NCBI GenBank assembly: GCA_965612795.1
Contig: CBFDTI010000020.1
Coordinates: forward strand, 1 to 19,324
Direction: 5' to 3'
Origin: an uncultured bacterium
GTDB lineage: Bacteria; Hydrothermota; UBA3073; NMUJ01
DNA: 19,324 bases
The notes under the pieces are model-generated. The model was not told the origin of the DNA, made no database searches, and saw only the letters and a list, made by a program, of their open reading frames with translations. The position numbers and the translations under genes were made by a program. How positions within the stretch are numbered: the first letter of the stretch is position 1; each line of letters starts with the position of its first letter. Of the stretch, positions 4,643 through 19,324 are shown piece by piece.

Positions 4643-6454
4643 ATGCGTTACGTGAGCTTAATAGTGGTGATAGGTTTAATGATGGGTTCATTACAAGCTC
4701 GTAATTTAGACAAGGTACCCCCATGTGAGAAGGTGGCGTATCCATTGGACTGGAAACGTCACACTATTGGTAAGCTATGGTTGGTGCTCACCAACATGGG
4801 TACAATAGGTGGTGCATGGGAGGCAGGCTATTCAGGATTACATGCGGAGTTTCCGCCAGGTTCGTTGGAAGAACACCTATGTGGTGCTGGTGTATGGATA
4901 GGCGCTATAGTTGAGGGTGAACCCTATGTTACCACAGGTTATGAGGGATGGGAAGGTCCATGGTTTGAATGTTATCCCACACAAAACGAATGGGATACAA
5001 TGTGGGTGGTGGAAACCGCTGACACGTTCTACGATATACCATACTGGACACCTTATGTTAAGGTATCGGCACAGGATTTTGTTGCCCGTTACTTTGACAA
5101 TACGAGGCTTGATATACCGTATCATCATCCATTGAATATCGAGATCATACAGCGTAGTTACTCGTGGGGTTATGGCTTCCTGCAGGATTTCATATATGTG
5201 GATTATAAGATAATAAATCTAAACGAAACTGATACACTACATCAAGCATATGTGGGATTTTTTGTCGATGGTGACGTGGGTAGGTTTACGGATCCAGCCG
5301 CAGGTGAACCTCATATTTGGGAGGACGATTTTACGTGGTTTGACCCCGACCGTATGATGGCTGTGATACAGGATGCACCCGGTGGGCCTGATGGTGATGC
5401 ATTGAGTCCGCTCGGCATAAGGATAATACAGACACCGGGTGATATGTCACAACTGCAGATGTCATTCCACTGGTATAGGGGTGAGGAATCGCCTCGGACT
5501 GATCGTGAGAGATACGATACGCTATCAAGCGGCGGGATAATGCCAAACCAGACACCTGAAGAGGCGATGGATACGAGGTTCCTGTTTGGGTTTGGGCCGT
5601 TTGAGATATTGCCGGGTGATACACTGCCGTTGACTGTAGCTGTACTATGTGGTGATGGTTTGAACGATTTCCTAAGTAATGCGGATTGGGCTGAAAGCCT
5701 TTACGTGTGGAACTTCCATGTACCGTTGCCACCACCGCCACCTAAGGTTACGGCATACCCAGAAGATAGGGCAGTACATCTTGTGTGGGATGATACACCT
5801 GAAAGTTACTACGATCCGTGGCGGTTGGATGGCAATAACTATCCATTTGAGGGATATAGGGTTTACAAAAGTACTTCAGGGGTGGGAGGTCCATGGACGT
5901 TGATATTTGAATGCGATCGTGCTGATAACCGATGGGGGTTCAATGTGGGGTTGACACACGAATTTTGGGATTATGGGTTACCCAATTGCATGCCGGTTTA
6001 TTATAGTGTTACGGCGTTTGCTGCACCGGATACGGTGTTCCAGCTGGAGGAGTTTCTCGAAAGCGCAGTGGAACAGAACATCATAGAGGTGCTGCCGGGG
6101 CCACCAGCTGATACCACTGGCAAGGAGAAGGTGATGATCATACCCAACCCATATCGTGGAGATTTTGACTATACATCCATAGGGTGGGAGTATCCACGAC
6201 CTGGCCTTGCATGGACTGAAGAGGATCGGCGTATTGTATTTATGAACCTGCCGCCACATTGTAAGATAAGGATTTACACGTTGGGTGGCGATCTGGTGCG
6301 AGAAATAGAGCACAACGATCCGGTGGTGGGTTGGGAGAGCTGGGATCTGCTTTCGAGTGAGCACCAAGCTATCGCACCTGGCATATATATCTATAGTGTA
6401 GAGAACCTCGATACCGGTGATGTACAGGTGGGTAAGTTTGTTGTGATAAAATAG
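4643..6454 (+). CDS. Secreted protein with FN3-like domain and C-terminal FlgD-Ig/T9SS-CTD-like sorting domain; function unknown
   Basis: Signal peptide MRYVSLIVVIGLMMGSLQA; Pro linker and FN3-like segment (PPPPPKVTAYPEDRAVHLVWD...FEGYRVYKS...YYSVTAF); C-terminus IIPNPY...IVFMNLP..CKIRIYTLGGDLVREI...WDL...APGIYIYSVE...GKFVVIK. Acidic and aromatic-rich. Confidence 0.8.
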   Translation: MRYVSLIVVIGLMMGSLQARNLDKVPPCEKVAYPLDWKRHTIGKLWLVLTNMGTIGGAWEAGYSGLHAEFPPGSLEEHLCGAGVWIGAIVEGEPYVTTGYEGWEGPWFECYPTQNEWDTMWVVETADTFYDIPYWTPYVKVSAQDFVARYFDNTRLDIPYHHPLNIEIIQRSYSWGYGFLQDFIYVDYKIINLNETDTLHQAYVGFFVDGDVGRFTDPAAGEPHIWEDDFTWFDPDRMMAVIQDAPGGPDGDALSPLGIRIIQTPGDMSQLQMSFHWYRGEESPRTDRERYDTLSSGGIMPNQTPEEAMDTRFLFGFGPFEILPGDTLPLTVAVLCGDGLNDFLSNADWAESLYVWNFHVPLPPPPPKVTAYPEDRAVHLVWDDTPESYYDPWRLDGNNYPFEGYRVYKSTSGVGGPWTLIFECDRADNRWGFNVGLTHEFWDYGLPNCMPVYYSVTAFAAPDTVFQLEEFLESAVEQNIIEVLPGPPADTTGKEKVMIIPNPYRGDFDYTSIGWEYPRPGLAWTEEDRRIVFMNLPPHCKIRIYTLGGDLVREIEHNDPVVGWESWDLLSSEHQAIAPGIYIYSVENLDTGDVQVGKFVVIK

Positions 6455-10428: not shown

Positions 10429-13304
10429 CCCCTGTATTTACAATACCTTCGGTAAGGACAATGATCACACGCCATATATTGTGGGGTAGGGTCGAACTCA
10501 CCCTTACGTATTTTATCCCATACCTCTTTGATAACCTCAACAGCTTTGGTTTTGCTATCCTCGATCTTTTTTAAACTCGCTTCCACCCCGGTATCGACGA
10601 ACTTCAACATCACCTTATTTGGTAGCACGCCAAACCTTTCGTAAAATGCAAGCACATATATGGGTAATTGCCAGTTTTCGCGTAACTTGCGTTTGGCGGT
10701 CTCCTCATCCCTTACATCACCTGTTTTGTAATCGATGATCACACCACCATCATTGTGCCAATCGATACGATCCCACCTACCGTTTATCAGGATACCCTCG
10801 ACAGTTACACGAAAGTCTTCTTCAATAAATACCGGTGGGGGTGCATCCTTCTCCTCTTCCATGAATCGCAACAGTACCGACTTACCGTGCTCAAACCGCA
10901 TACGCTCATGTTCGGGGCTGTGAAAGTATCCCTTACGTGCACGCCAGACGGATTCAAATACGTTGAACACATCCTCTAACTCCGGTATTATACGTTTCTT
11001 TTTGAACCTTAGGTAGTAAGCTATAGCTTCGTGTATGGCTTCACCATAGACAAGGTTGTGATCGGGTTCAGGTGGTAACTTCAAAACATACCTGAAGTAG
11101 TAACGACGTGGACATAATTTATAATCCCCTATCTGGGCTGCGGATAGGAATTTGGGTAGCTTCACCTGTATGAGCGGTACCCCTGATAGCGGTTCGTAAT
11201 GGCTGACTATGTCTTCATCTGCGGTGTAAGAGGCTTCTAATACATCTGGGGGGAGGTCGAGCGCCTCCATAACGAAGGGGCTCACCTTCTTTTGGCGTCT
11301 CCTATCTTTATATTTGCGGGGCCATGTCATTATTAACTTATCCATAGCGCGTGTCATACCGACATAAAATAGGCGACGCTCCTCTTCGAGTTCGTCACTC
11401 ACGATGATCTCCTCTTTTAACAGTGCATCGGGTACCTCTGCGAAACGGCGCCTCTTACGACCGGGGAAGACTTCATCCACAAGTGCGGGCATTATCACTA
11501 CCTTGAATTCGAGACCTTTCGCTTTGTGTAAAGTGAGTATGTTTACAGCATCTTCTTCGAAGTCGGGTTCAGGTAATGGTGGGTTCTCACCCATATCACG
11601 GAGTTTATCGATCCTATCCACCAGATAAAATGCACGTGTGTCACCTGTGTCACGGCCCATGCTTTCGAGTAGCTTCAGGAACGCCATGATGTTGTTCATG
11701 CTTTGTATCATTTGAGGTGTAGGGTTGCGTTCGACACGCTCAAACCAGCCACTCGATTTGAGAAATTGATAGATCGCAAACGGAGCTGGCTCCTTAACAG
11801 CGAGGTCAAGGAATAGCTTAATATCGTTGTGTATTTTCTTGATGATGGATTTGGTGGCTGTGTTTAAGGGTTCGAGGTTATCGATATCATTTAGTGCATC
11901 AAGTTTGGATTCACCTTCGTAGCTGTTTAGGTGAGCCATAACGGTGGCGATTTCGGTACCTGATATGTTGTCACTTAGCTCGTATATTGGTGATGTCAGT
12001 ATCGCGTAGATAGCACCTACATCAGCTGGTGAGTGTGTTAGCCGCATCAGGTTGATAAGGGTTTTGATTTCAGGTTGATCGAACAGCCCCTCACTACCTG
12101 TGAAGTGATACAGTATACCGCGGTTGTTGAGCACGTTTATGATATCTTCGGCGGATTCGTTCCTACGTACGAGTATGGCTATATCCTTGTAGTTGTAAGT
12201 GCCGGAGTTGACCAGCTGCTGTATGAGCTCAACTATGTACTCAGCTTCTGCACTTGAGGTTGGGAAAAAGTGATACTCTATGCTGTTGGGAAGGTCGTCA
12301 CGTATGCTGTTGATATGTTTATCGATGTCGGGGTAGATGGATTCGAGTCGCTTCTGGTTGTTGCGTATCAATCTACACGCAGCATCTAATATGGTAGGGG
12401 TGGAGCGATAGTTTTGACGTAATACAACCTTTTTAGCATCGGGAAACTCTTTGCTGAAAGTAAGTATGTTGCTGATAGCGGCACCCCTGAACTTATATAT
12501 GCTTTGGTCGTCATCACCTACAACCATGATGTTGCGATGACCTGCTACTATTAATTTAAGTAGCTGCCACTGTGCGAAATTGGTATCCTGAAATTCATCA
12601 ACAAGCACAAACCTGTAGCGGGATTGGAACTCTCTAAGCACATCCGGGTATTGGCGGAACAGTTTTAACGGCAGTGATATAAGGTGCTGTATATCCACAT
12701 AGCTGTGTTGAAGTAATAAGGTTTCGTATTTTTCGTAGAAATGTGCGAGCTCAAGGTGTTTTTCGCGTTCGGGGTCGTCGGGTGGTAGGTTTTCTGCGTA
12801 GGTGAGGTACTCCTCTGGGGTGATATCTTCGTCCTTCAACCGCGATATATAATCTATAAGGTCACGTAAGTAGTGGGTGGGCCGGCTCAATGGTCTGAAC
12901 CTTTGAAGTGGTAGCTCGAACAGGTGGTCGCTCAAAAATAGTGCAACCTCATATTCGTTCAATACCCTGAAATTGGGGTCTATGCCCAGCTCCCATGCAT
13001 AATCACGGAGGATGAGCTCGCCAAATGAATGGAAGGTCGAAATTGTTGTCTCTACATAGCCGTATGGGACAAGCTGATCGACACGGGTGGTCATCTCCTC
13101 AGCTGCTTTGTCTGTGAATGTGGTTGCCAGTATTTCACGTGGATGTGCGGTACCTGTGTTTATGAGGTATGCAATCCTGTATGTGATGACACGTGTTTTA
13201 CCGGTACCGGCACCAGCGATCACGATTATGGGGCCCTCCGTATGGGTGACGGCTACACGTTGGTCGGGGTTGAGTTCATTAAGTAGCTGGGTTACGTTTT
13301 GCAT
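10425..13304 (-). CDS. UvrD/PcrA-family SF1 helicase fused to a C-terminal PD-(D/E)XK (RecB/AddB-type) nuclease; AdnA/AdnB-like
   Basis: LNPDQ, AGAGTGKT, TFTDKAAEEM, STFHSF, VDEFQDTN, VGDDDQSIYKFRGA, NYRST, LTLHKAKGLEF, EERRLFYVGMTRA; then LSAAQIGDYKLCPRRY, GRWDRID, IIDYKTG, QLPIY, CDHCPYRRYC (four Cys). Confidence 0.93.
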   Translation of the reverse strand: MQNVTQLLNELNPDQRVAVTHTEGPIIVIAGAGTGKTRVITYRIAYLINTGTAHPREILATTFTDKAAEEMTTRVDQLVPYGYVETTISTFHSFGELILRDYAWELGIDPNFRVLNEYEVALFLSDHLFELPLQRFRPLSRPTHYLRDLIDYISRLKDEDITPEEYLTYAENLPPDDPEREKHLELAHFYEKYETLLLQHSYVDIQHLISLPLKLFRQYPDVLREFQSRYRFVLVDEFQDTNFAQWQLLKLIVAGHRNIMVVGDDDQSIYKFRGAAISNILTFSKEFPDAKKVVLRQNYRSTPTILDAACRLIRNNQKRLESIYPDIDKHINSIRDDLPNSIEYHFFPTSSAEAEYIVELIQQLVNSGTYNYKDIAILVRRNESAEDIINVLNNRGILYHFTGSEGLFDQPEIKTLINLMRLTHSPADVGAIYAILTSPIYELSDNISGTEIATVMAHLNSYEGESKLDALNDIDNLEPLNTATKSIIKKIHNDIKLFLDLAVKEPAPFAIYQFLKSSGWFERVERNPTPQMIQSMNNIMAFLKLLESMGRDTGDTRAFYLVDRIDKLRDMGENPPLPEPDFEEDAVNILTLHKAKGLEFKVVIMPALVDEVFPGRKRRRFAEVPDALLKEEIIVSDELEEERRLFYVGMTRAMDKLIMTWPRKYKDRRRQKKVSPFVMEALDLPPDVLEASYTADEDIVSHYEPLSGVPLIQVKLPKFLSAAQIGDYKLCPRRYYFRYVLKLPPEPDHNLVYGEAIHEAIAYYLRFKKKRIIPELEDVFNVFESVWRARKGYFHSPEHERMRFEHGKSVLLRFMEEEKDAPPPVFIEEDFRVTVEGILINGRWDRIDWHNDGGVIIDYKTGDVRDEETAKRKLRENWQLPIYVLAFYERFGVLPNKVMLKFVDTGVEASLKKIEDSKTKAVEVIKEVWDKIRKGEFDPTPQYMACDHCPYRRYCKYRG

Positions 13305-13337
13305 TTTTCAATCTGCATTTTGCATCCTGCATTGAGC
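13292..13337 (-). repeat. Heptamer-periodic repeat arm C (direct copy of 13766-13811); contains the helicase-nuclease start codon
   Basis: ttacgttttgcatttttcaatctgcattttgcatcctgcattgagc; 42/46 identical to 13766-13811 by manual alignment. Confidence 0.9.
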
Positions 13338-13383
13338 GAAAGCGTCTATATGGTGCTGTGGCGTTCCTTCGTGAATACAACAT

Positions 13384-13418
13384 TGCAAAATGAAGATTGC
13401 AAAGTGCAAATTGCAAAA
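13384..13418 (+). repeat. Heptamer tandem repeat arm B, inverted relative to arms A and C, abutting the four-helix-bundle stop codon
   Basis: tgcaaaa-tgaagat-tgcaaag-tgcaaat-tgcaaaa (5 x 7 bp). Positions 13384-13416 match the reverse complement of each of the other two arms at 27/33. Confidence 0.9.
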
Positions 13419-13778
13419 TCATTTTCCCCCTCCTTTCGCAGTGATAACGGATTTTGCAACAATTTTGATCAATTCGTTAGCTTCAGCCAATAACGGTTGT
13501 AACTCCTTGCTAGAAATTAAGTCGCTTCTCTCCACCAACTTCAGCCAATATAAAGACTCTCGTAATTCCTTCAAGACGAGTTGCATCTTATGTATAAAAT
13601 CGGCTTTACTTTCTGCTCCACATGCTTCTTCATAATTTGCTCCAGAAGACGAAGCAGCTCGCATTAGCTGATTTGCTATGTACCGTCCCACAGCGGTTCT
13701 TTTAAGTCTAACTGTCAATTTAATGCTACTTACTGCGAACTCTAATAGCCGTTCTGATAAATCGCTTACATTTTGCAT
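13419..13778 (-). CDS. Four-helix-bundle protein (23S rRNA intervening-sequence protein / bAvd-like family)
   Basis: DLSERLLEFAVSSIKL...IANQLMRAASSSGANYEEA...ESKADFIHKMQLVLKELRESLYWLKLV...LLAEANELIKIVAKSVITAK matches the family pattern QLxRxxxSxGANYxEA..S..DFxxK..IxxKExxExxYWL. Confidence 0.92.
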   Translation of the reverse strand: MQNVSDLSERLLEFAVSSIKLTVRLKRTAVGRYIANQLMRAASSSGANYEEACGAESKADFIHKMQLVLKELRESLYWLKLVERSDLISSKELQPLLAEANELIKIVAKSVITAKGGGK

Positions 13779-13811
13779 TTCTCAATCTGCATTTTGCATT
13801 CTACATTGAGC
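13766..13811 (-). repeat. Heptamer-periodic repeat arm A; contains the four-helix-bundle start codon
   Basis: ttacattttgcatttctcaatctgcattttgcattctacattgagc; direct repeat of 13292-13337, 474 bp away. Confidence 0.9.
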
Positions 13812-13823
13812 CATTGCGCTTAA

Positions 13824-13985
13824 CTATCGGATGATGGCTAATTTGCTAAATTTTTCCTTACCGTCGGGTGTCACTATCTGGTAGATGTAGAGGCTGGTGA
13901 TTTTACCGGTGATACCAGCATAGAGTGATACGATCACCAAAAGAGATAAGAGGGTTAATACGAGAGGTCGTATTTTGCTTACCAT
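13824..13985 (-). pseudogene. 53-aa chimeric mini-ORF, probable in-frame deletion remnant (signal peptide and TonB-dependent-receptor-like N-terminus fused to a CTD-like C-terminus)
   Basis: MVSKIRPLVLTLLSLLVIVSLYA-GITGKIT|SLYIYQIVTPDGKEKFSKLAIIR*. The tail aligns by eye with GIYIYSVENLDTGDVQVGKFVVIK* at the end of the 4643-6454 protein. Upstream TTGTCT(14024-14019)-16bp-TAATAT(14002-13997). Confidence 0.6.
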
Positions 13986-14058
13986 TCTGATATTTAATAT
14001 TAACGTGTTTGGGGGGATAGACAACCTCCAAATAAGGTAGATCGATTACATTGGGTGC

Positions 14059-14087
14059 TTGACTTGGTATCGTCACTCTTATATATT
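14059..14087 (+). promoter_or_regulatory. Sigma70-like promoter of tRNA-Met/tyrS
   Basis: TTGACT 14059-14064, 17 bp, TATATT 14082-14087 (or TATATA at 15 bp), ending 7 bp before the tRNA 5' end. Confidence 0.65.
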
Positions 14088-14094
14088 TAATAAC

Positions 14095-14167
14095 GGCGGC
14101 GTAGCTCAGTTGGTAGAGCAGCGGAATCATAATCCGCGTGTCGGGGGTTCGAGGCCCTCCGCCGCCA
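14095..14167 (+). tRNA. tRNA-Met(CAT), elongator type; CCA not encoded
   Basis: Cloverleaf: acceptor GGCGGCG/CGCCGCC, D arm GCTC/GAGC, anticodon stem GCGGA/TCCGC with CAT at 14128-14130, T arm GGGGG-TTCGAGG-CCCTC, discriminator A. Paired G1-C72 and absence of the GGG/CCC anticodon stem exclude an initiator. Ile2 cannot be fully excluded. Confidence 0.93.
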
Positions 14168-14181
14168 TTCCCATGAATTGT

Positions 14182-15384
14182 ATGGATGTATGGGATAAGA
14201 TTGTGGCACACACGGAGGAGATCATTTTACCTGAGGAGCTCAAGGAGCGGCTTGCACGTGATAAACCACTACGTATAAAGTTGGGTATCGATCCCACTGC
14301 ACCTGACGTACATCTGGGGTGGGCAACAGTATTGTGGAAGTTGCGTCAATTTCAGGAGTTAGGTCATACAGCTGTGTTGATTGTGGGCGACTTTACTGCT
14401 AAGATAGGTGACCCGTCAGGGCAGTCGAAGACCAGACCGCAGTTGAGTGATGAGCAGATTATGGAGAACATGAGACATTACCAGGAGCAGATATTTAAAA
14501 TATTGATACCTGAGTATACGGAGTTCAGATACAACAGTGAATGGCTGTCACAGATGAGGTTGGACGACCTGATAAAGCTTGCATCTAAGGTGACAGTGGC
14601 ACAGTTGCTGGTGAGGGAGGACTTTAACACACGCTACAAGGAGGGTAACCCCATAGCGTTACATGAGTTCCTGTATCCAGTGATACAGGGGTATGATTCG
14701 GTGATGGTGAAAGCGGATGTGGAGATTGGTGGTAGGGATCAGAAGTTCAATTTCCTGTTGGCACGTGAGTTACAGCGATACTATGGGCAGGAGCCGGAGG
14801 TGTTGGTGTTGATGCCGTTACTGTTGGGTACGGATGGTGTACGTAAGATGAGCCAGAGCTTGGGTAATTACATAGGGATAAGCGAGCCGCCGGATGAGAT
14901 GTATGGTAAGATAATGTCGATACCGGATGAACTTATACCACATTATTATGAGCTGGTGTTACGTTATCCGAAAGATGAGGTTAACAAAATAGCGGGGGCG
15001 ATCAAATCGGGTGAGGTTAACCCACGTGATTTGAAGGCTAAGCTGGCGTGGGAGGTGGTTAAGTTATACCACTCAGAAGATGCAGCTGATAAAGCAGCGG
15101 ATAGGTTCGACCGCATATTCAGTAAGCGTGAGCTACCGGAGGAGATGCCCACCTTTAAGCTACCCGCACGTAAGATGCGTATTGTGGATATAATCCACGA
15201 GATAGGGTATAGTGGGTCGAAGAGCGAAGCTAAGCGGTTGATACGTCAGGGTGGGGTTAAGGTCAACGGTAAGGTGGTGGATGATGTGGAGCAGGAGATA
15301 GATCTACAATCCGGTGTTGTGGTGAAGGTAGGTAAACGCAAGTTTGCACGTGTGGTGTATGGGGGAGATACTACCAGTAGATAA
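14182..15384 (+). CDS. tyrS: Tyrosine--tRNA ligase
   Basis: IKLGIDPTAPDVHLGW, IVGDFTAKIGDPSG, EFLYPVIQGYD, EIGGRDQKFN, KMSQSLGNYI, C-terminal S4 domain (SKSEAKRLIRQGGV...KVGKRKF). Start is ATG 14182 or 14173; the ORF-track start at 14059 runs through the tRNA. Confidence 0.95.
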   Translation: MDVWDKIVAHTEEIILPEELKERLARDKPLRIKLGIDPTAPDVHLGWATVLWKLRQFQELGHTAVLIVGDFTAKIGDPSGQSKTRPQLSDEQIMENMRHYQEQIFKILIPEYTEFRYNSEWLSQMRLDDLIKLASKVTVAQLLVREDFNTRYKEGNPIALHEFLYPVIQGYDSVMVKADVEIGGRDQKFNFLLARELQRYYGQEPEVLVLMPLLLGTDGVRKMSQSLGNYIGISEPPDEMYGKIMSIPDELIPHYYELVLRYPKDEVNKIAGAIKSGEVNPRDLKAKLAWEVVKLYHSEDAADKAADRFDRIFSKRELPEEMPTFKLPARKMRIVDIIHEIGYSGSKSEAKRLIRQGGVKVNGKVVDDVEQEIDLQSGVVVKVGKRKFARVVYGGDTTSR

Positions 15385-17429: not shown

Positions 17430-19255
17430 ATGGATCCACTAAGTATACCGGATCTTGTGGATAATAAACGGGTTACTGGGGTGACCTTACGTGACGTGAT
17501 TGTCAGAATCTTGGAACAAAGTTCTAATCCTTCGCTTTTCGTGGCAACTGCTTATTTTAATTTAGAGGCGCTCAATAGTTTATCGACTGTTTTAGATAAA
17601 GTATCGGAATTGCGACTTTTAATAGGTAAGGAACAAGATCAGGCTTTTGTACTTACTGAACGTCTACAGCGAGAGCTTGAAGATAAAGCAACACGAGGTG
17701 ATCTGTCCATACTTCCTGAACTTCAAAGATGGCGTGATTTTCTTCGACAAGATAAGGTACATATACGCTACTACACGGGCGGATTTTTACATGGGAAGGC
17801 GTACCTTATAAGCGGTGTACCCGTAGCTGGATACATTGGTATTGTGGGGTCGTCCAATTTCACTGGTGCGGGGCTGGAGACAAACTTGGAGCTTAACGCT
17901 GTTCTTAAACAAACCACGGCTGTGGAGGAGCTTTTGCGATGGTTTGAAAATCTCTGGGCTGAGTCTGAGGACTACAAGGAAACGCTTCTTGATATGCTGG
18001 ATAATTTCACGCACACCTATACTCCATATGAAATTTACATCAAAGTACTTTATGAAGCGTTCAAGGATCGGTTACAGGCAGATTTAAGCGAACAAGAGGA
18101 GAAACCTTCACCAATTGCATTGGCGGATTTTCAGCATGATGGTTACTTTGCTGCTAAGGAGATTCTTGAGCATTATGGTGGTGTAATTCTTGCAGATTCA
18201 GTAGGATTGGGTAAGACATATCTGGCGTTACGCCTGTTGGATGATTATGCGTATCAAATGCGGGAAACTGCCCTGGTGATATGTCCTGCTGCTCTAAGAG
18301 ATACACTCTGGAAGCCACTCTTAGAAATGCATGCTATACCACATCATATAGAGTCTATGGAACGTATTAGTCAAAGTGATTTTAATATCGAAGAGTTTTC
18401 TGAATATAAAATTATCGTTGTTGATGAATCACATAATTTCCGTAACCCTAATGCTAATCGGTGGCGTAATCTGTTTAGGTTATTGACGGAAGGAGATCAA
18501 ACAAAGAAGGTGATATTCCTTACGGCTACGCCGATTAATAATACAATTTTTGATTTATACCATCAGCTTCGGCTTATTGCACGGGATGAGCTTGACTTTT
18601 TTGCTGATGCTGGTATACCAAATCTTTTAGGTTATTTTCGGCGTGCGGAGGAGAACAAAGACGCACTATATGAGGTATTAGAAGCGATTGCTGTACGACG
18701 TAGCCGCCCCTTTATACGTAAAAATTACCCTAACGCTCAGATTGATGGACAAGTGTTACGATTCCCGAAACGAGAGTTGCATACGGTTCATTATAAATTG
18801 GAACGAAGTTATGGGAAGGCTCTTTATGCTAAAGTGGCGGAGGCGATTGAGAACCTAATACTTGCACCATATCAGGTGGATACATTTCGTAAAGAGGTTA
18901 AATATATACGGCAGTTAAGTCTGTTTGATATGTTCCCGTCTATGGCTAAAATTAAAGGAAGAGAGTTACCACTTATTAAACGATTAATACAACAAGGGTG
19001 GAGTAAAGAAGAGGTACAGGATTTTGTGATGACAATTGGACGACAGACTGCACTTGCTCATATTATGCGAGTGCTCTATCTTAAGCGACTCGAATCTTCG
19101 GTAGAAGCATTACGTATATCGTTGCGACGGCAGCTTGATTTTCAACGTGCATTTTTAAAGGCGATGGAAAGAGGTAAACTGTTAGATAGTAAATCTTATC
19201 GGAAATGGTTACAGATGGAATCAGCGGACGATCAGGCTGAAGGTGAACCTAATTT
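17430..19255 (+). CDS. PLD-family nuclease domain fused to SNF2-like SF2 helicase; 3'-truncated
   Basis: VATAYF, FLHGKAYL...VGSSNFT..GLETNLELN (PLD); LADFQ, ILADSVGLGKT, VICPAAL, VVDESHNFRN, FLTATPINN, KRLESS. No helicase C-domain before the adapter. The ORF-track tail CLLYTSPSPRD* is translated adapter. Confidence 0.88.
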
Positions 19256-19324
19256 CTGTCTCTTATACACATCTCCGAGCCCACGAGACTAGGCATGATC
19301 TCGTATGCCGTCTTCTGCTTGAAA
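19256..19324 (+). other. Illumina Nextera adapter read-through (artefact)
   Basis: Tn5 mosaic end CTGTCTCTTATACACATCT 19256-19274, CCGAGCCCACGAGAC 19275-19289, i7 index TAGGCATG 19290-19297, P7 complement ATCTCGTATGCCGTCTTCTGCTTG 19298-19321, then AAA. Confidence 0.99.

Follow-up and report, generated by a model that had tools for sequence, protein, structure and literature searches.

The sequence analysed here is a 19,324-nt stretch of DNA (positions 1 to 19,324 of contig CBFDTI010000020.1, assembly GCA_965612795.1) from an uncultured bacterium of the Hydrothermota, and this whole stretch is referred to below as the window. The minus strand of the window has inverted heptamer repeats, or arms, around a gene for a 119-aa four-helix-bundle protein, next to a gene for a UvrD-type DNA-repair helicase with a C-terminal nuclease domain. 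The order on this strand is arm A, the four-helix-bundle open reading frame (ORF), arm B, a spacer and arm C, which carries the ATG of the helicase gene (Table 1). The host genome, as well as all other genomes compared, is a metagenome-assembled genome (MAG).

Table 1. Positions of the arms, genes and junction at the helicase-nuclease locus of the window
Feature	Position	Strand	Remarks
Cassette left end and arm A	13766–13823	-	Arm A proper 13766–13811; ~5 heptamers of the TGCAAAA type; four-helix-bundle ATG (13778–13776) inside
Four-helix-bundle gene, 119 aa	13419–13778	-	PF05635 / S23p / Avd-like, by hidden Markov model (HMM) match and fold
Arm B, right inverted heptamer array	13379–13422	-	Begins at the four-helix-bundle stop TGA (13421–13419)
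Spacer	13345–13378	-	Shortened part of the 'tail' hairpin segment found behind arm B in complete elements
Arm C: left end of a second, gutted copy, with its arm	13292–13344	-	Resembles a miniature inverted-repeat transposable element (MITE); helicase ATG (13304–13302) inside
Deletion junction	13292–13296	-	Between 13296 and 13295, ambiguous over GTAA at 13295–13292; 99 nt absent relative to L121
UvrD-type helicase, C-terminal PD-(D/E)XK nuclease, 959 aa	10425–13304	-	First three codons (MQN) element-derived
3' remnant of a large upstream ORF, ~25 codons	13824–13900	-	ORF intact in relatives

Repeat arms around the four-helix-bundle gene

Arm A and arm C (13292–13337) are identical at 42 of 46 positions, and the direct repeat stretches to 53 nt with 87% identity (13766–13818 and 13292–13344). 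Arm B consists of three 14-nt tandem units. Its positions 13384–13416 show Watson-Crick complementarity to arm A at 27 of 33 positions and to arm C also at 27 of 33, and on the minus-strand RNA there are two extra G-U pairs with arm A and one with arm C. Alignments between arms of this type are ambiguous as the arms are tandem repeats. The proteins encoded by the four-helix-bundle gene and the helicase gene both begin with MQNV, and there is no motif resembling a Shine-Dalgarno (SD) sequence ahead of either start. By comparison, SD-like 4-mers precede 291 of the 810 long ORFs in this genome, versus 96 in a control window. An original prediction, made from the letters of the window, had described this anatomy. 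A recount finds the arms at the same coordinates, with the same 42/46 and 27/33 matches, the common MQNV and the two SD-less starts. The helicase start that it had placed inside arm C is upheld also, i.e., the arm C ATG is the first start codon that follows a stop in the same frame, and the alignment with orthologues begins at residue 5–6.

On its left the cassette follows immediately on the TAG (13826–13824) of the decayed upstream ORF. Homology to cassettes in other contexts begins at 13818–13827, and GTTA is the left flank in five of nine cassette contexts among those listed. The repeat exceeds what chance would give: TGCAAA clusters of the arm type are found at no other site in the 1.42-Mb genome under the cluster criterion used. 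A solo arm (G000:C53:722–762) and a short gene-less hairpin copy (G000:C12:20139–20239) are present in the window's own genome, both of them below what this criterion detects.

A 99-nt deletion and the start of the helicase gene

The same locus is found in a close relative, L121, where the helicase gene is 94% identical in nt sequence over 996 nt and the upstream ORF has the same end. The order in L121 is arm, ORF, arm, spacer, second left arm, a 45-nt ORF stub, second right arm, a 16-nt leader and the ATG GAT of the helicase gene. The native helicase start region of L121 has the sequence MDVTQLLSELNPDQR. The helicase of L121 starts MDVTQLL, outside any arm, and its leader has an SD-like GGAG 13 nt upstream of the ATG; the GGAG is absent from the window.

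A pairwise alignment of the window and L121 displays a single 99-nt gap in the window, with GTAA on both sides. The missing 99 nt comprise the stub of the ORF together with the second right arm, and also the leader and ATG GAT native to the helicase gene; homology between the helicase genes begins at 13295. In L121 the counterpart of arm C is followed by an ORF stub and a right arm of its own and thus belongs to a separate copy of the element. On this comparison, arm C belongs to a second, gutted copy in tandem, as its left arm, and is not the third leg of a designed switch. The ATG of the gutted copy is joined in frame to codon 3 of the helicase, which produces MQNVTQLL, and it is due to this fusion that the two proteins have the same MQNV start. 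The helicase of a distant orthologue (L005) also starts MD, and the MD form is therefore probably the ancestral one.

The helicase-nuclease has UvrD-helicase, UvrD_C and PDDEXK_1 domains. Comparison with L121 over 924 codons gives a dN/dS (ratio of non-synonymous to synonymous substitution rates) of 0.054 with a dS of 0.215; by this measure the gene is under strong purifying selection.

The junction is present in independent assemblies. Record 21 of the independent metagenome X2 is a contig that bridges it (13234–13326) with 0 differences, and X2 also holds the form with the native leader, at a depth of 25.5. The 90% identity cluster of the helicase has 32 members, which the source names as candidate division WOR-3. 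Fifteen of them are listed and 13 of these are full-length; 10 start MD[VI]TQLL and three start MQNVTQLL. Apart from the window's own helicase, two database proteins, encoded on contigs of 29 kb and 36 kb, have the MQNVTQLL start. A tree places the MQNV forms in two clades, each with its own support, and one of these forms (P0244) is one residue apart from an MD form (P0243). By these positions in the tree, the MQNV fusion arose twice or was spread by recombination.

A rearranged form of the locus is found at positions 1–420 of G002:C20 (L114), from another genome of the genus. The order is the reverse of that in L121, with a gutted copy, the same spacer and then a full cassette, which hints at unequal exchange between tandem units. 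A solo arm ahead of the helicase gene in G001:C117 was also considered but rejected as a candidate: the contig ends 20 nt past the arm, and its letters fit a four-helix-bundle stub at least equally well.

The cassette family and its gutted copies

The 119-aa protein matches the PF05635 profile with an E value of 1.8e-16 and 60.7 bits (curated cut-off 33.8) over profile positions 9–104 of 106, and has a sequence match to the structure 2rld with an E value of 6e-22. The AlphaFold2 model consists of four helices and has a pLDDT (predicted local distance difference test) of 92.9. The predicted fold has template modeling (TM) scores of 0.80–0.90 to 2rld, 0.78–0.85 to 2gsc and 0.77/0.82 to 4dwl, which is Avd, the accessory protein of diversity-generating retroelements (DGRs); the fold search also matches the DGR ribonucleoprotein entries 8ub7, 8ube and 8ubb. 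The 2rld structure has five chains, and in PMC4990558 a PF05635 protein from Xanthomonas is described as a homopentameric ring. PF05635 is termed Avd-like in PMC10053308. The kinship to Avd and to the proteins encoded in intervening sequences (IVSs) of 23S rRNA, which the original prediction had named, is borne out by the profile match and the similarities in fold.

A word-indexed search yields 1,629 relatives of the protein at E ≤ 0.001, many of which have N-terminal extensions that represent translated arm sequence. From these, 160 homologous loci were taken, 80 from genomes and 80 from metagenomes, and 153 were usable for a test of the arms. The original prediction had proposed a scan of the genome for paralogs of the gene with inverted heptamer arms. 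In the family at large, such arms exceed all 20 shuffles in 146 of the 153 usable loci, with a median score of 18.5 as opposed to 7.7 for shuffled sequences. The heptamer varies by lineage, yet the upstream and downstream arms remain complementary. The median arm length is 34 nt, or ~5 heptamers, and throughout the family arm B starts at a median of 8 nt past the ORF stop. The last in-frame ATG is within arm A or no more than 10 nt from it in 68 of 118 loci, the sense strand of the upstream arm is purine-rich in 101 of 132, and the genes on the two sides are both co-directional in 72 loci out of the 104 that allowed a call for each. As judged from these loci, a PF05635 cassette of ~470–590 nt, a selfish element with one gene only, has arms A and B as its ends, in the form of inverted heptamer arrays.

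The dN/dS of the four-helix-bundle gene is 0.05–0.25 in the eight usable pairs of 16; the pairs left out are L121 (too few changes), L125 and L135 (indels), L138, L143 and L150 (mis-registered in the ungapped alignments) and L033 and L035 (saturated). Over these eight pairs the gene is under purifying selection. The ORF of the window (13419–13778) differs from that of L121 (L121:3001–3360) at only four of 357 positions, with one synonymous and three non-synonymous changes. The arms and spacer diverge more from L121 than the ORF does, and the adjoining helicase gene has the dS of 0.215 given above. This near-identity suggests a recent homogenisation (gene conversion) or transfer of the cassette ORF alone.

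The spacer of the window is the first part of a segment of ~110 nt. Spacer-type segments follow arm B in L120, L122/L032, L123 and L121, and are located between tandem copies in G002:C20 and G001:C80. In complete elements the whole segment is a 'tail' hairpin with an outer inverted motif after arm B (right flanks of L120, L122/L032, L123, L130 and L133; positions 13345–13383 in the window). L131, at the site that L130 and L133 also occupy, has no tail, and the tail may belong to the cassette or be a small palindromic element in its own right.

Gutted copies with one shared junction (arm, ~45 nt of ORF, arm), together with a shorter type, are found at about nine loci in G001 and G002, which are of the same genus as the window's genome. 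The latter has an empty site at six of these ~9 loci. At three of the six the comparison is clean: the insert has TTA at both of its borders (GTA in one left copy), and the empty site has a single TTA. At another locus, L201 (G001:C49), the window's genome is rearranged and offers no clean site. The complete element L120 consists of a left end, arms, ORF and the ~110-nt tail hairpin, and has GTTA flanks on both sides. Cassettes that are 83–94% identical in nt sequence are found in at least seven different flanks, and proteins with 75–94% identity are encoded on long contigs that the sources name Marinimicrobia and Methanophagales. In the X1 run the word-depth of the arm is ~18,000, versus 40–118 for the flanks. 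By these comparisons of occupied and empty sites, the gutted copies are mobile.

None of the transposase families PF01609, PF13359 and PF00665 is detected in the three genomes of the genus; G001 is 87% and G002 66% complete, so that absence is unproven, and other transposase families were not searched. G001:C34 encodes a Y1 transposase (PF01797, IS200/RAYT-like, 240 aa) with the same small palindrome on both sides; the window's genome does not have this transposase ORF. This gene (G001:C34:382–1104, L208) was tried as a mobiliser of the cassette and rejected, as it has its own palindromes, similar to repetitive extragenic palindromic sequences, and neither heptamer arms nor the tail motif are found within 3 kb of it.

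Interpretation, alternatives and known systems

The following series of events is proposed. The ancestral locus would have been as in L121, with a second copy complete with both arms and a helicase gene with its own leader and the start MDVTQLL. In the lineage of the window, a deletion of 99 nt between two GTAA microhomologies removed the stub, the right arm, the leader and the native ATG, and fused the ATG of the gutted copy in frame to helicase codon 3, so that the helicase starts from a leftover arm. The helicase is presumably still made from this captured start, in an SD-less, A-rich context that the cassette gene also uses. The hairpin of arms B and C would be a by-product that may lower helicase translation, and the cassette arms are probably bound by the cassette's own protein, a putative pentamer. 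The anatomy, the deletion and its occurrence in independent assemblies, the movement of the gutted copies and the purifying selection on the two genes are regarded as demonstrated. This reading as a whole, i.e., cassette ends, a gutted tandem copy, a microhomology deletion and a captured start, is considered very probable.

Several points weigh against it. That the 99 nt were deleted and not inserted follows by parsimony from the form that most members have and from a single distant orthologue, in an unrooted comparison. The two MQNV clades could mean recombination of the 5' end and not two deletions. Contigs from RNA libraries (X18, X19) cover parts of the four-helix-bundle ORF and of the helicase gene at a depth of 2–8, which does not by itself prove transcription, and none of these contigs bridges an arm. 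Three of the six empty-site comparisons are messy replacements of 10–70 nt, and the TTA at the two borders could be a genuine duplication or could include one copy carried by the element. No transposase is linked to the element, the full copy of which encodes the 119-aa protein only.

A broader proposal is that the cassette represents an autonomous mobile element of an undescribed kind. A putative pentameric Avd-like bundle, as the sole product of the cassette, would read the ~5 heptamers of each arm. Acting in trans, it would move full cassettes as well as gutted ones to TTA sites in different bacterial phyla and also in archaea, with no known transposase involved and, in the host of the window, no RNase III. 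As a side effect, decaying copies would rewrite host gene starts, recurrently at one helicase, and would leave the start codon in a helix that the cassette protein can bind. In this full form the proposal is speculative and rather unlikely.

Secondary structure modeling bears on what the arms may do in the mRNA. The original prediction had called for a comparison of the A:B and B:C helices. Both are stable and, as duplexes, equivalent, with energies of -30.8 kcal/mol (A:B) and -29.4 kcal/mol (B:C), and constrained folds swap partners. In cis the minimum free energy is -134.6 kcal/mol, versus -121.6 kcal/mol with arm C blocked, i.e., B:C is ahead by 13 kcal/mol, and the ensemble has 25.1 expected pairs between B and C but 0.08 between B and A. 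When arm C is blocked, arm B pairs with arm A (23 pairs) and the helicase AUG is freed. The local B:C hairpin has a free energy of -36.4 kcal/mol (z = -2.56), and two of 200 shuffles are as good. The unpaired probabilities of the three bases of the helicase AUG in the ensemble are 0.96, 0.03 and 0.00.

These last values are consistent with an incidental attenuation, where the layout is accidental and yet the B:C hairpin sequesters the captured AUG, the GGAG has been lost, and the helicase is a hypomorph in this lineage. The GGAG of the L121 leader, absent in the window, and the use of SD-like motifs elsewhere in this genome (291 of 810 ORFs, as noted above) point in the same direction. The loss of a further ~6 kb just upstream, in a genome of 1.42 Mb, fits ongoing reductive evolution. 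However, the four-helix-bundle family normally initiates in the same arm-embedded, SD-less context, which implies that this context is translatable, and the chimeric allele, its ORF intact, has been retained on three contigs from two clades. Attenuation of this kind is possible but somewhat doubtful.

The original prediction had proposed a dedicated, mutually exclusive RNA switch, in which arm B pairs either with A, so that the helicase start is free, or with C, so that it is buried, and in which terminating ribosomes or the protein flip the state and control the helicase-folD-amidase genes. The stability of both duplexes, the shift to A:B with the release of the AUG when C is blocked, the z value of the B:C hairpin and the location of the four-helix-bundle stop codon inside arm B are all in accord with a switch, and the presence of an arm-embedded start in two clades could mean that it is favoured. 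The comparative evidence is in conflict with this proposal. A purpose-built switch is unlikely because arm C is the leftover of a gutted copy and the helicase start was captured by a deletion; the layout is a product of the 99-nt deletion, absent from the closest relative, L121. A third arm is found in only five of 130 related cassettes, all of them tandem elements, and the native start is kept in 10 of the 13 full-length helicases listed. In cis the B:C pairing dominates, as described above. The arm mismatches in 126 arm pairs show no excess of G-U (109) over A-C (116, p = 0.69), although this is a weak test given the ambiguous tandem-repeat alignments. An Rfam search of positions 13000–14300 at E ≤ 1 finds tRNA-Met only, with nothing on the arms and no rRNA. 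RNase III models (PF14622, PF00636) have no match in this 99.5%-complete genome; matches are found in none of the three genomes of the genus and in seven of 26 relatives searched. The switch is thus not sustained in its designed form, which lacks comparative support, and it is regarded as very improbable; a kinetic, co-transcriptional switch is conceivable.

It is still less probable that arms A and C represent attL/attR-like sequences or target-site duplications from a single integration of the cassette at the helicase start. The 53-nt direct repeat does bracket the gene, arm B and the spacer, but arm C in L121 has its own ORF stub and right arm, clean insertions elsewhere are flanked by TTA only, and the order in G002:C20 is reversed, gutted copy before full copy with the same spacer. 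A false joining of cassette and helicase gene through repeated arms during assembly of the MAG contig can be virtually dismissed: the arms are massively repeated in communities, contigs often end at arms, X1 record 1 ends exactly at 13295 and sister-genome contigs break here, but X2 record 21 spans the junction without a difference, the two additional database proteins have the same MQNVTQLL start, and the fusion is in frame.

Upstream of the cassette, ~6 kb with a large ORF (979+ aa in L121) are deleted relative to G001:C117 (L112, L115); the corresponding region of the window is at 13824–14094, and the deletion junction is near 13893–13900, at a short shared stretch. In the remnant of this ORF the start codon reads ATA, and an SD-like GGGAGG reads GGTAAG. 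A scan for promoters and terminators finds two promoter-like sites, not above the shuffle mean of 2.7, and no helicase promoter can be named from it. The large ORF of L121 has no Pfam match; a resemblance to a secretion-tail domain is an impression only. A tRNA-Met gene (CAT, 14095–14167, plus strand) is found upstream of tyrS, and the ORF listed for tyrS, which starts at 14059 (TTG), runs over the tRNA gene, so that this start is spurious. The tRNA gene accounts for the ~80% matches of the stretch to many contigs of sister genomes. Elsewhere in the window, positions 4643–6454 (plus strand) represent a 603-aa ORF with no Pfam match, and positions 17430–19292 (plus strand), at the contig end, encode a PLD-like nuclease fused to a SNF2/DEAD helicase.

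The closest described system is the ORF-bearing IVS of 23S rRNA, which has in common with the window a PF05635 ORF, inverted arms, heptamers and an SD-less start. According to PMC4990558, the IVS of Coxiella burnetii and Leptospira is an element of ~430 nt in which terminal inverted repeats form a stem around the PF05635 ORF. Tandem heptamers, variable in number, are described there just upstream of the ATG, with a poor SD, as well as a long-suspected mobility and the excision of rRNA IVSs by RNase III. There are differences also. The IVSs are located in helix 25 or 45 of the rRNA, whereas the element in the window lies between a decayed ORF and the helicase gene. In the window whole heptamer arrays make up the arms on both sides. 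The IVSs are processed by RNase III, which is not detected in the host of the window. The Coxiella IVS ORF is described as decaying, but the ORF of the window is, by its dN/dS, under purifying selection. In full-text searches of the literature, no description was found of such cassettes outside rRNA or between protein genes, and heptamers were found only in the Coxiella IVS paper.

PF05635 proteins and rRNA IVSs have been without an assigned function or mobility mechanism for more than 30 years (PMC4990558). The locus offers handles on both, i.e., occupied and empty sites within one genus, the TTA flank, full ends with a tail hairpin and gutted derivatives, in a host with no detectable RNase III or common DDE transposases. 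What the window adds is a start-codon capture that recurs, empty sites to compare with TTA-flanked inserts, and a host in which RNase III is not detected.

The Avd protein of DGRs has the four-helix-bundle fold in common with the window protein, but the sequence match of the latter is to 2rld and the S23p branch and not to Avd. In a scan of 17 window ORFs neither a reverse transcriptase nor any other part of a DGR was detected; pairs of template and variable repeats were not searched for. The gutted copies are similar to MITEs, which are non-autonomous derivatives of transposable elements, in that both ends are kept, there is one internal deletion junction, several loci are occupied with presence or absence within the genus, and the flanks are TTA. 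They are unlike MITEs in that the full-length partner encodes a 119-aa helical-bundle protein and no recognisable transposase.

Insertion sequences and other mobile elements can donate starts or promoters to host genes. The helicase gene is similar to such cases in that its 5' end, including the start codon, comes from mobile-element sequence. The difference is that the donor here is a decayed hairpin cassette, and that a microhomology deletion replaced an existing start. The locus thus represents a natural example of start-codon capture, in which a decayed copy replaced the start and leader of a conserved helicase-nuclease gene and in which the captured form is found in two clades.

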